DNA of 64,000 bases, from contig JBLIRN010000001.1 of NCBI GenBank assembly GCA_049472315.1, forward strand, positions 1 through 64,000. Reading direction: 5' to 3'. Both the position numbers and the translations under genes were made by a program. The notes under the pieces are model-generated. The model saw only the letters and a program-made list of their open reading frames with translations. It was not told the DNA's origin and did not search any database. How positions within the stretch are numbered: the stretch's first letter is position 1; each line of letters starts with the position of its first letter. This DNA comes from a bacterium (GTDB taxonomy: Bacteria; SZUA-182; DTGQ01; JAFGSM01). Shown one piece after another: positions 1 to 15,297 of the stretch.

Positions 1-300
1 CATACCCCCCACTCCTGCGACCATGCTTCGGACAAAGCGCTCGTGGCCCGGCACATCGACGATCCCCAGGCGGATGTCACCCGGCAGCTCCATATGGGCA
101 AAACCGAGTTCGATGGTGATCCCGCGCTCCTTCTCCTCGGGGGCCTTGTCGATCTCGTCAAAGGGGATGAACTTCGCAAATCCCTTCTTCTCCAGCACCT
201 GGGTCATCGCCGCGGTGAGGGTCGTCTTCCCATGATCCACATGCCCTATGGTCCCTACATTGACATGCGGCTTCTTCCTCTCAAATTTCTCCTTAGCCAT
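1..300 (-). CDS. Translational GTPase, 5' part (runs off the window): EF-Tu N-terminus continuing in frame into SelB-like sequence
   Basis: Manual translation from ATG 300: [32 protein letters not shown]...[13 protein letters not shown] (EF-Tu) then [37 protein letters not shown] (SelB-like). AGGAGG RBS upstream; lies downstream of the Thr-Tyr-Gly-Thr tRNA cluster typical of tufB. Confidence 0.85.
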
Positions 301-367
301 CAGTCTTCCTCCTGTTATGCGCGGTGATCAAGGCATTCAACATTGTAAACCCCAACCAGTTCAAAAC

Positions 368-443
368 TGGAGCCCACGATCGGATTTGAACCGATGACCT
401 CTTCCTTACCAAGGAAGTGCTCTGCCGACTGAGCTACGTGGGC
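368..443 (-). tRNA. tRNA-Thr(GGT)
   Basis: Cloverleaf GCCCACGTAGCTCAGTCGG...anticodon GGT...GGTTCAAATCCG...CCA encoded. Confidence 0.97.
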
Positions 444-461
444 AAAAGATTTTATACAGGT

Positions 462-538
462 TGGAGCGGGAAACGGGATTCGAACCCGCGACCCTCAGCT
501 TGGAAGGCTGATGCTCTAGCCAACTGAGCTATTCCCGC
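462..538 (-). tRNA. tRNA-Gly(TCC)
   Basis: GCGGGAATAGCTCAGTTGG...anticodon TCC...GGTTCGAATCCC...CCA encoded. Confidence 0.97.
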
Positions 539-705
539 TAAACTGCCAAGCTATTTAAAACCCTGCATTCCGGTTCGAGATATAATTTAGTACCGTGTAA
601 TAATGCCCCGGTACCATGTCCATAGTGTTTGTGATCCGCAGTCCTTGCTCAAGGGAAGATCCCTTGTTTTGCCCCGGCACCTTATACCATATTTTTTAGT
701 ATTAT

Positions 706-959
706 AAAACGCCTGCGGTTTGCAGGCGGAGATTGTAAAATCCTAAGCATAACATATTTTTATAGTTTAGTAAAAAACCGCGATTTGTGGGCGGAAATTG
801 TAAACTCCAAGCTGGTCATATTTGTTTAGTTCAAGTAAACGCCTGTGGTTCGCAGACGAAAATTGTAGCTTCCAAGCCGATTATATTTAGTTAGTCTAAA
901 TAAACGCCTGCGGTTCCAGGCGGACGTCGTAACTTCCAAGCCGATTATATTTTTTTAGT
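706..959 (-). repeat. About four degenerate ~65-bp tandem repeats with a hairpin in the tRNA-Tyr/tRNA-Gly spacer
   Basis: AAACGCCTG(C/T)GGTT..CAG(G/A)CG hairpin starts at 710, 840 and 905 with a more diverged copy near 775; each is followed by TTGTAA..TCCAAGC..ATATTT-like sequence. Confidence 0.85.
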
Positions 960-962
960 TGA

Positions 963-1044
963 TGGAGGGGGGAGGATTCGAACCTCCGAAGGCGTCGCCG
1001 ACAGATTTACAGTCTGTTCCCTTTGGCCGCTCGGGAACCCCTCC
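963..1044 (-). tRNA. tRNA-Tyr(GTA), long variable arm, CCA not encoded
   Basis: GGAGGGGTTCCCGAGCGGCCAAAGGG...CTGTAAA...GGTTCGAATCC...CTCCA followed by TCA. Confidence 0.96.
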
Positions 1045-1057
1045 AACATCTTTTAAC

Positions 1058-1220
1058 ACTATGTTATGTCTTCTGCCAGAAAAAATGTCACGAACTCAAC
1101 GACTATGTTATGTCTTCTGCCAGAAAAAATGTCACGGACTCAACGACTATGTTATGTCTTCTGCCAGAAAAAATGTCACGAATTCAACGACTATGTTATG
1201 TCTCCGGCCAGAAAAAATGC
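1058..1220. repeat. 44-bp tandem repeat, ~3.7 near-identical copies
   Basis: Unit ACTATGTTATGTCTTCTGCCAGAAAAAATGTCACGAACTCAACG starts at 1058, 1102, 1146, 1190; no unique spacers. Confidence 0.95.
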
Positions 1221-1506: not shown

Positions 1507-1582
1507 TGGAGCTGGCGAAGGGATTCGAACCCCCGACCCGCTGATTACAAATCAGCTGCTCTACCGACTGAGCTACGCCAGC
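1507..1582 (-). tRNA. tRNA-Thr(TGT)
   Basis: GCTGGCGTAGCTCAGTCGG...anticodon TGT...GGTTCGAATCCC...CCA encoded. Confidence 0.97.
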
Positions 1583-1804: not shown

Positions 1805-3520
1805 TTACTGCATCATTCCTCCGCCTTGCATGTCCTGCATGGGCAAACTCATGGGCGGGGTGGGGAGGGAAGACTGATATTTTTTCAGGGCCTCCTGATT
1901 TGTGGTAATCGATGCCTTCGATTTCAATTTGGCGATAAGGTCCTGAATCTTTTTATCCCTTTTCTGAAACAGCACGATTTGTTCAACCTCGTATCTGACA
2001 TCGCTCAAGCTTGATGCTCCTGCCTGCTTATGGTCCTCCATCTTTATGATGTGGAAGCCGAAATTGGTCCGCACCACATCACTGACCTCTCCCTTTTTGA
2101 GCTTGAAGGCGGCCTCTTCGAACAGGGGTGCCATCCTGCCCCGGGAGAAATATCCGAGGTCTCCACCGTTTTTGGCCGTCGGGCATATTGAGAATTCCTC
2201 TGCCAGCTTCTCGAAATCACCGCCTGCCTTGATTTTGGCGAGGATCTCCTTTGCCTGTTCCTCGTCCGGTACCAGAATGTGGCGGACCCTGATTCGTTCC
2301 GGCATCTCCTTGAACCGTTCCCTGTTGGTTTCGAAATATTCCTTCAATTCCTCGTCGGTTACCTTTACGTCCTTCACATACTCCATGGCGTAGGTCTGCC
2401 CCATGAGTCCGTCTTTGAGGAGGTCGAATGTCCTCTTGAATTCCTCATTCTGGTCGTATTTGAGCCGTTTCGCCTCTTCAAGAAAAAGCACGCTGTTGAC
2501 CTTTTCGTTGATGATATTTTTCAAGAATTCGGGCTGCTTGAGGTACGGGCTGTTCATCTGGTAGCCGTATTCGGGTCTTTGGGGGGGCAGGATCTCCTTA
2601 AGGAGGATCTCTTTGCCATTCACTGTGGCGACCACCAGCTTGAGTGACGCCTCGTTGATCTTGTCGGATTTTTCCAGCTTTTTGATGTTCTTGTCGTTCA
2701 ATTCGATCTTTGCCTTCGATCTCAAACGGTCGAGCAGCTTATCGCGGACCTCGTCCAGTTTGGACTTTTGAAACTTATACCGCAAATAGTTTTTCCTGCT
2801 CTCCATTTCCTGTTCCGTCAGTTCCTTCCTGCTCACGGCCTTGAAGATGGCATGCCCCTGCCGGGTCTTGATGGGTTCGCTCACCTTTCCGTCCTTGAGT
2901 CGAAAGATCTTCTTTTCATCCTCGTCTGAAAGCTCACCCTCGAAATATCCGGTGTTGGGAATAACATACCCGATTTGTCCGCCCTTGGACGCATTTTTCG
3001 ACTTGGATCGCATCTTGGCCAGTTTGTTAAAATCCGGTTCCTTTTGAAGGGTCTTGAGGATGTCCTCCGCCTCTTCTTTCGTATTCACGAGGATCTGCTG
3101 AAAGTTGACCTTGTATTTGTCCGATGCCGGGATCATTTTTTCGATATCCGCATCAGTCAGTTCCGCCTTGTCCTCGACCTCTTTGGTGTAAAAGAAGTTG
3201 GCGAGCTGCTGCTCCTTCATCATCTCCAATTGTTCTTCGAATTCGGGCCCTTGATTGACCCCCTTCTTTTTTGCCTCCTCGGCAAGAAGGAGGTAGGCGA
3301 TGATCTGATCGAGCAGGGCTTGCGGATCCGCTCGGCCTTGCATGAGTTTCTCGAATGTCGCGGTATGGATCTTAAGGCCGTTCACCTCGGCGATGACCTG
3401 GCCGTTGTTCTTGCTCCCGGCCGGATTTGAATCATTCTGCTCCTGTGCAGCGGCAGACATGGTGGTCATCATGATGAACACCAGCAGTATGGTGAGAAGC
3501 GTGCCCAATATCTTCTTCAT
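1805..3520 (-). CDS. Exported peptidyl-prolyl isomerase/foldase with two parvulin (PpiC) domains
   Basis: Signal peptide MKKILG...; parvulin motifs QQILV...GGQIGY and RVRHILV...GGDLGYF...FGFHII; AGGAGG RBS before ATG 3520. Confidence 0.88.
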   Translation of the reverse strand: MKKILGTLLTILLVFIMMTTMSAAAQEQNDSNPAGSKNNGQVIAEVNGLKIHTATFEKLMQGRADPQALLDQIIAYLLLAEEAKKKGVNQGPEFEEQLEMMKEQQLANFFYTKEVEDKAELTDADIEKMIPASDKYKVNFQQILVNTKEEAEDILKTLQKEPDFNKLAKMRSKSKNASKGGQIGYVIPNTGYFEGELSDEDEKKIFRLKDGKVSEPIKTRQGHAIFKAVSRKELTEQEMESRKNYLRYKFQKSKLDEVRDKLLDRLRSKAKIELNDKNIKKLEKSDKINEASLKLVVATVNGKEILLKEILPPQRPEYGYQMNSPYLKQPEFLKNIINEKVNSVLFLEEAKRLKYDQNEEFKRTFDLLKDGLMGQTYAMEYVKDVKVTDEELKEYFETNRERFKEMPERIRVRHILVPDEEQAKEILAKIKAGGDFEKLAEEFSICPTAKNGGDLGYFSRGRMAPLFEEAAFKLKKGEVSDVVRTNFGFHIIKMEDHKQAGASSLSDVRYEVEQIVLFQKRDKKIQDLIAKLKSKASITTNQEALKKYQSSLPTPPMSLPMQDMQGGGMMQ

Positions 3521-3695
3521 AATAGAGGAACCTCCTTTCAAATATTGACGGTCCATGTAATGCAAATTATCGTCTTGTACCCGGTTGCCCTTTCGATTAC
3601 AATGAAAGGGCCATTATTCGCGCCCGTTCGTTTCCTCCCACGTGTGTCGCCATATGTATATACATTGATGGGTCGCTTAGGCTCCACAAGTAGGA

Positions 3696-14592: not shown

Positions 14593-15297
14593 GTGAACGC
14601 ATACGCCATCATCCCCGCTGCAGGGAGCGGCACCAGGATCGGGGAGGGGATGCCCAAGCAGTATATCCCCCTTGCCGGTGTGCCCCTTCTCACCCATACG
14701 CTTCACAGGTTCCAGAGGTCGCCTCTGATCGATGAAATCATCGTGGTGGTGCGAAGGGGTGAGGTCACGCGGGTCAGGCGGGAAATCGTCGCCCCGCATG
14801 ATCTTCCCAAGGTGCGGCGGATCGTCGAGGGGGGCGCCGAGCGGCAGGATTCCGTTTCCCGGGGGCTGAAGGAGATTTGGGATGACACGGGGGACGATGA
14901 CATCGTCATCGTGCATGACGGCGCCCGGCCCTTTGTGGATGAGGAAGGGATCGCGCGATGCATTCACGAGGCACGGGAATGCGGTGCGTGCATCCTGGGT
15001 CTCAGGATCACCGAGACCCCCAAGTGCGTGAATGACGGAGGTATCATCATGTCCACCCCCTCACTGAACGGTCTCTGGGTTGCGCAAACACCCCAGGCAT
15101 TTCGGGCCTCCGTGCTGAAAGAGGCCCATTCCCGAGCCCGGAGCGATGGTTTTTACGGCACTGACGAGGCATCATTGGTTGAGCGGCTTCCCCATCCCGT
15201 GCGGATCGTACAGGGAAGCATTTGGAATATCAAGGTGACCCATCCCGGTGACCTTGCATACGCGGAGTGCATTCTGCGCATGGGGGTATGTCCATGA
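14593..15297 (+). CDS. ispD: 2-C-methyl-D-erythritol 4-phosphate cytidylyltransferase
   Basis: IPAAGSGTR, PKQY, RQDSV, VHDGARP, QTPQAF; start uncertain (GTG 14593 chosen). Confidence 0.94.
   Translation: MNAYAIIPAAGSGTRIGEGMPKQYIPLAGVPLLTHTLHRFQRSPLIDEIIVVVRRGEVTRVRREIVAPHDLPKVRRIVEGGAERQDSVSRGLKEIWDDTGDDDIVIVHDGARPFVDEEGIARCIHEARECGACILGLRITETPKCVNDGGIIMSTPSLNGLWVAQTPQAFRASVLKEAHSRARSDGFYGTDEASLVERLPHPVRIVQGSIWNIKVTHPGDLAYAECILRMGVCP

Follow-up and report, generated by a model that had tools for sequence, protein, structure and literature searches.

Where tuf, the gene for EF-Tu, is duplicated in bacteria, one copy lies in the str operon and the other, tufB, lies behind tRNA genes, and the two are kept identical by gene conversion. 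The locus described here has the same arrangement, with a tRNA cluster before one copy, fusA before the other, and identical gene ends; it differs in that amino acids 64–168 of tuf are missing from the binned assembly, and nothing else about the duplication is unusual. A second point of comparison is given by EF-Tu/SelB variants engineered for selenoprotein synthesis (PMC4150793; bioRxiv 10.1101/2025.02.04.636165), which, in the available parts of these sources, concern the same topic, an altered specificity of EF-Tu or SelB for Sec-tRNA, but are laboratory constructs. No natural tuf-selB fusion was found among the literature matches listed. The locus also resembles the inter-genome chimeric contig ends of short-read metagenomes, as it lies where a contig terminates beside a collapsed multi-copy gene, is joined in a stretch common to two conserved paralogues, shows discordant depth and lacks independent reproduction. 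It differs from them in that the join is in-frame and connects two translational GTPases at homologous positions, resembling a designed domain swap, and in that only one of its parents (tuf) was identified.

The window, which is the whole stretch of DNA analyzed here, comprises positions 1–64,000 of contig C1 (255,918 nt), so that this contig physically ends at window base 1. C1 belongs to a metagenome-assembled genome (MAG, G000) of 101 contigs, which is 97.6% complete with 1.35% contamination. An open reading frame on the minus strand (300..1) starts with an ATG at 300 and remains open through window base 1, giving 100 amino acids with EF-Tu in residues 1–63 and SelB in residues 64–100. The first part was identical at 63/63 positions to EF-Tu of a genome of the same genus (G001, locus L010), and only 1/37 of the following residues agreed with that protein. 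Residues 64–100 were instead identical at 27/37 positions to the MAG's own SelB and at 31–33/37 positions to the SelBs encoded in three fetched loci (L023, L102, and L101). When scanned alone against NCBIfam, residues 1–63 scored 104 bits with the EF-Tu model TIGR00485 and 35.3 bits with the selB model, while the sole match of residues 64–100 was TIGR00475 selB (39.7 bits, E = 2.4e-10, profile positions 40–73). A typical EF-Tu start followed by a SelB signature after residue 63 had been proposed by an earlier, sequence-only reading, and both assignments are borne out by these scores and identities. The same reading had named an ordinary EF-Tu profile score of the downstream part as the result that would speak against it; no EF-Tu model matched residues 64–100 at E ≤ 0.001 in NCBIfam. 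The full 100 residues scored 123.3 bits with TIGR00485 (cut-off 522.4) and 92.4 bits with TIGR00475 (cut-off 242.25), and Pfam assigned a single GTP_EFTU domain spanning the whole fragment.

Neither family is represented completely in this frame. On the EF-Tu side, residues 1–63 contain the N-terminus, including the G1 P-loop GHVDHGKT, and the effector region as far as ..RGITI, and the continuation past RGITI (..HVEY..DCPGHADY..) is absent from residues 64–100. On the SelB side, residues 64–100 carry the SelB-type segment ELGFA...DVPGHERF...MVAGVGG and match the selB model only, in agreement with SelB, the elongation factor specific for selenocysteine (TIGR00475), but the SelB-type G domain from its short N-terminus onward is absent, the SelB-like part is confined to these 37 residues, and domains II–IV and the winged helices are not visible in the fragment. 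An ungapped comparison of the frames gave 5–8/54 identical positions between residues 1–54 and the SelBs. The frame leaves the contig after codon 100, ahead of any EF-Tu domains 2/3 (GTP_EFTU_D2, GTP_EFTU_D3) or the SECIS-binding winged helices at the C-terminus of SelB. The exact 100-residue protein forms a cluster with 1 member, located on 1 contig (C1), among approximately 15 billion proteins.

The position of the join could be confined to a short zone. The tuf gene of G001 matched window positions 113–319 with 97% nucleotide identity, and this match stopped at 113. Among 30 relatives, 12 genomes gave 14 tuf-type matches, which began at query positions 111–113 and never lower, while the four selB-type matches covered 1–138 (the MAG's own contig C26), 10–138 (G011), 12–138 (G008), and 1–123 (G002), none of them reaching above 138. 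No match in the 30 relatives spanned both sides of the junction. A blastn comparison with 160 fetched selB loci agreed with this limit, since the best 15 of 148 rows ended at window positions 138–142. The frame can hence be divided, on the minus strand, into a genuine 5' part of the tuf copy at the tufB position (139..300; codons 1–54), which matches tuf only, a crossover zone of 26 nt (113..138), which is compatible with both tuf and selB and encodes EEKERGIT plus two bases of the next Ile codon, and a selB-like tail (1..112; codons 64–100 and the last base of codon 63), which matches selB only, does not belong at the tuf locus, and reaches the contig end. The ribosome-binding region upstream of tuf (301..319) is near-identical to the region before the second tuf copy on contig C65. 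The 10-residue motif that the sequence-only reading had located at approximately nt 112–141 is encoded by window positions 141–112, and its placement of the join at the most conserved shared motif was confirmed, as both families match the 26-nt zone. Because tuf and selB are paralogous GTPase genes and are joined at homologous positions, the reading frame was kept automatically; the open frame is therefore no sign of selection, and the in-frame join says nothing about function.

Only 112 nt separate the junction from the end of C1, and tuf itself is broken at contig ends throughout the assembly. A tblastn search with the G001 EF-Tu detected no whole tuf in the MAG but four pieces, every one at a contig end: C1 300..1; C65 76..2 (aa 1–25); C65 15054..14980 (aa 373–397); and C32 31377..30691 (aa 169–397, up to the end of this 31,377-nt contig). 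The binned assembly lacks the middle of the gene (aa 64–168). C65 (15,054 nt) encodes NusG, L11, L1, L10, L7/L12, RpoB, RpoC, S12, S7, and EF-G between its two tuf stubs, while C32 carries the 3' part of tuf, then S10, and then a frame assigned to Ribosomal_L4 by Pfam. The first 77 nt of C65 (1–77) are identical to C1 225–301 and its last 77 nt (14978–15054) to C32 30689–30765, with the identity ending exactly there in both cases; a slightly longer comparison of C65:1–95 with window 225–319 gave 98% identity, with mismatches at 302 and 317 only. The terminal 77-mer recurs elsewhere in the assembly for 13/202 contig ends, and for 11 of these 13 the identity extends over exactly 77 nt. Such exact overlaps point to a de Bruijn graph assembly with a final k of 77. 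The overlaps of C65 with C1 and C32 mark a collapsed tufA/tufB repeat, whose two copies show no difference from the base directly preceding the ATG (window 301) onward and, at the 3' end of the gene, again over 77 nt. It had been remarked from the sequence that tuf is often duplicated and that this might underlie a chimera; here tuf is both duplicated and collapsed, as the 77-nt overlaps attest. The shared tuf ends allow the contig order to be deduced as probably C1, tuf, C65 (nusG...fusA), tuf, and C32 (S10 operon). The layout would run from the tRNAs and the 5' end of tufB on C1, through a tuf body, to the 3' end of tufB on C65, then through fusA to the 5' end of tufA, and through a second tuf body to the 3' end of tufA and the S10 operon on C32. 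No contig in the bin is shorter than 6,120 nt, and a tuf repeat contig of approximately 1.2 kb would have been excluded from it.

Public Logan assemblies provided an independent view of the junction. A listing of public runs that contain the initial 3 kb of the window comprised 20 runs from 7 studies, and at least half of the sampled words were present in 19 of them. The contigs of four of these 20 runs, each from a different study (X1, X2, X4, and X5), were compared with window 1–1200; the comparison uses contigs rather than reads, its depths are summed over all look-alikes that are at least 90% alike, and its listing of single contigs comprises 32 pieces out of 1937 and 24 loose ends out of 254. 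Contigs with zero mismatches covered 113–250 in X1 and X5 and 113–292 in X2, and they carried a median of 54–75 further letters before base 113 that do not belong to the window. Thirty of these letters, when translated by hand in the frame of the gene, read I-A-T-A-H-V-E-Y-E-T, which is aa 63–72 of the G001 EF-Tu. The contigs of three studies thus show that tuf continues as normal EF-Tu past the junction. No mismatch-free tuf contig of X4 was among the pieces listed, and no contig bridging base 113 was found among the 32 of 1937 pieces. Logan assemblies are built with k = 31, and a shared stretch of 26 nt cannot bridge them.

The depths of these contigs were compared with that of the flank at window 509–992. 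The tuf contigs had depths of 72.9 in X1 (flank 36.9, ratio 2.0), 232.5 in X2 (flank 100.9, ratio 2.3), and 73.9 in X5 (flank 25.9, ratio 2.9). With a depth 2.0–2.9 times that of the unique flank, ordinary tuf accounts for both collapsed copies. The selB-like end behaved differently. In the bin of window positions 1–40, the depth was 2.12 in X1, 3.89 in X2, 13.2 in X4 (flank 18.5), and 3.74 in X5, corresponding to 0.06, 0.04, 0.71, and 0.14 of the flank, so the ratio spread 18-fold between runs. The value of 0.71 is compatible with a co-occurrence of the tail and the genome in X4. A rare tail with a ratio that depends on the run is the pattern expected of a different organism. Logan cover was absent in parts of the window, such as 321–360 (three runs) and 681–920 (X5), and such gaps were not used as evidence.

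These observations make it very probable that the hybrid frame is a metagenome assembly artefact at a contig end and not a gene, which the sequence-only reading had regarded as the most likely cause. A contig end at a repeat boundary, a join within shared sequence, independent data in which the two parts are not joined and tuf goes on as EF-Tu, and a difference in depth were all observed. The origin of such an artefact may be outlined as follows. The genome would carry two identical tuf copies, the order being the tRNA cluster and tufB, then nusG-rplKAJL-rpoBC-rpsLG-fusA-tufA, and then the S10 operon. A de Bruijn assembly at k = 77 would fail on this repeat, and C1, C65, and C32 all end inside tuf, presumably because the repeat could not be resolved at that k. 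The path at the end of C1 would follow the tuf repeat for 188 nt, switch within the stretch of approximately 26 nt that tuf and selB share (the EEKERGITI codons) onto approximately 112 nt of selB, and reach a dead end there. The selB sequence would belong to another and much rarer member of the same community. Assemblers of the SPAdes type proceed through k of 21, 33, 55, and 77, and contigs from small k are fed into the later rounds. Since 26 shared nucleotides would not by themselves suffice for joining paths at k = 77, an extra step is assumed, which may have been an edge formed in a small-k graph and retained at larger k, or a read or PCR product that was already chimeric in the library.

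The selB gene that belongs to this organism is located on C26 (10149–12161; L183:1150–3162). It is intact, internal to its contig, scores 366 bits with TIGR00475, and encodes the domains GTP_EFTU, D2, beta-barrel, SelB-wing_2, and SelB-wing_3. An intact selB with both SelB-wing_2 and SelB-wing_3 shows this to be a selenocysteine-decoding organism. Its open frame extends for approximately 36 codons ahead of the conserved KHIILGTAGH start region, close to which no ATG, GTG, or TTG was seen. This gene matched window 1–138 with 73% nucleotide identity and, with 27/37 identical residues, differs clearly from the tail; the organism's own selB was ruled out as the donor. A loose end at position 104 in X2, when translated by hand, read as this own SelB (ELGFTSLDLPG), which shows that the own selB merely has approximately 35 nt in common with the window at that point. 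A search for intact copies of both genes, which had been suggested from the sequence, succeeded for selB on C26 and failed for tuf, of which no whole copy exists in the MAG. A reciprocal join of the selB 5' part to the tuf 3' part, suggested in the same place, was not found either, as selB is intact inside C26 and the 3' pieces of tuf at the ends of C32 and C65 have no selB attached.

The donor of the tail was sought more widely. An exact 30-mer of window 66–95 had 0 matches in genome_contigs and 0 in metagenome_contigs. A back-translated search with window 1–150 (minus strand) gave only ordinary SelBs among the matches listed, the best of these reaching 82% protein identity over the 50-residue query in genome_contigs, where Geomonas/Geobacteraceae MAGs lead, and 84% over the same query length in metagenome_contigs. 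By blastn, window 1–160 was at best 84% identical in nucleotides to the 160 selB loci (L102), and a search of the host phylum (20 genomes) returned G011 as its best and only match, at 77%. The host phylum is small in the collection, with 20 genomes in 8 families. The fetched SelBs were full-length and ordinary with normal N-termini (MKHLILGTAGHIDHGKT...), those of L101, L102, and L023 being of the MKH..LGTAGHIDHGKT type. The tuf parent of the chimera was thus identified, and a selB donor was not found among the matches listed in genome_contigs and metagenome_contigs, in the 160 loci, or in the 20 genomes of the host phylum. We infer that the donor was another organism.

The absence of a donor from these searches, together with the contamination estimate of only 1.35%, would also fit a tail derived from a divergent paralogue, a second selB of this organism, that was mis-joined to tuf, in which case the artefact would involve no foreign donor. 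We consider such an origin very improbable, since a tblastn search with the own SelB detected no second selB, either as a body or as a winged-helix part, in the 3.05-Mb bin, and the depth of the tail is far below that of the genome in three of the four runs.

A recombination within living cells is also conceivable, in which, in a minority of cells, the 26-nt EEKERGITI microhomology allowed tuf to recombine with a selB fragment gained by horizontal transfer, and the assembler took up this minor allele. An identical stretch of this length could in principle support illegitimate recombination, and sequences at least 90% alike over window 1–80 were present at low but non-zero depth in all four runs. 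If true, the minority tuf::selB allele would encode a hybrid translational GTPase. However, a rare organism with an ordinary selB explains the low depth equally well, and the 18-fold spread of the tail/flank ratio (0.04 to 0.71) is expected of two independent populations. Such an event would also destroy one tuf copy with no evident gain, and no bridging contig was found among the 32 of 1937 Logan pieces listed; we therefore regard it as very unlikely.

Hardly any credence can be given to a real hybrid tuf::selB gene fixed at the tufB position, with the N-terminus and P-loop of EF-Tu on a SelB body, because, although its letters are present in the deposited contig and its 100 codons are open across a join at homologous positions, the perfect tuf contigs of three studies continue as EF-Tu at approximately twice the flank depth and cover both copies, the tail stands at 4–14% of the flank depth in three of four runs, the junction lies inside a collapsed repeat and within 112 nt of a contig end, the join occurs in 0/30 relatives, the 100-residue protein is a singleton, and no selB remainder is present in the bin. 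A real hybrid factor, which the sequence-only reading had named as a remarkable alternative, is unsupported.

The genuine side of the junction is preceded by four tRNA genes on the same minus strand as the frame, all detected by both ARAGORN and Rfam: tRNA-Thr (GGT; 368..443; RF00005, 73.6 bits), tRNA-Gly (TCC; 462..538), tRNA-Tyr (GTA; 961..1045), and tRNA-Thr (TGT; 1507..1582). A tufB-type tRNA cluster ahead of the frame had been recognized from the sequence, and it reads Thr(TGT)-Tyr(GTA)-Gly(TCC)-Thr(GGT), the same arrangement as in the thrU-tyrU-glyT-thrT-tufB operon of E. coli. The spacers of this cluster contain repeats. The 422-nt spacer between tRNA-Gly and tRNA-Tyr is filled by two tandem arrays that overlap and have a 65-nt period (684–960; 2.0 and 2.6 copies, 78–80% matches), and each unit appears by eye to contain a short GC-rich inverted repeat of the GCCTGCGG..GCAGGC type. 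A long spacer filled with repeats in this way is unusual within a tRNA-tufB operon. Logan cover of run X5 ends at 657 and restarts near 921. Adjoining tRNA-Tyr, in the spacer toward tRNA-Thr(TGT), a 44-nt unit is repeated 3.7 times with 95% identity (1058–1219), for which no Rfam family was found at E ≤ 0.1. Beyond the cluster, a 586-residue frame on the minus strand (1805–3565) has a signal-peptide-like N-terminus and is rich in lysine and glutamate and repetitive.

As the hybrid frame is very probably a mis-join at a contig end, there is no biological novelty in it, and its relevance is one of curation only. The first 112 bases of C1 (C1:1–112) should be trimmed. The partial 'EF-Tu' derived from this contig is already a singleton in a public protein collection and is unfit for trees or family alignments. 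The locus also serves as a worked example of how a k-mer mis-join at the contig ends of MAGs yields, by construction, in-frame 'domain swaps' between highly conserved paralogues. A useful by-product for the organism itself is the probable contig order of C1, tuf, C65, tuf, and C32.
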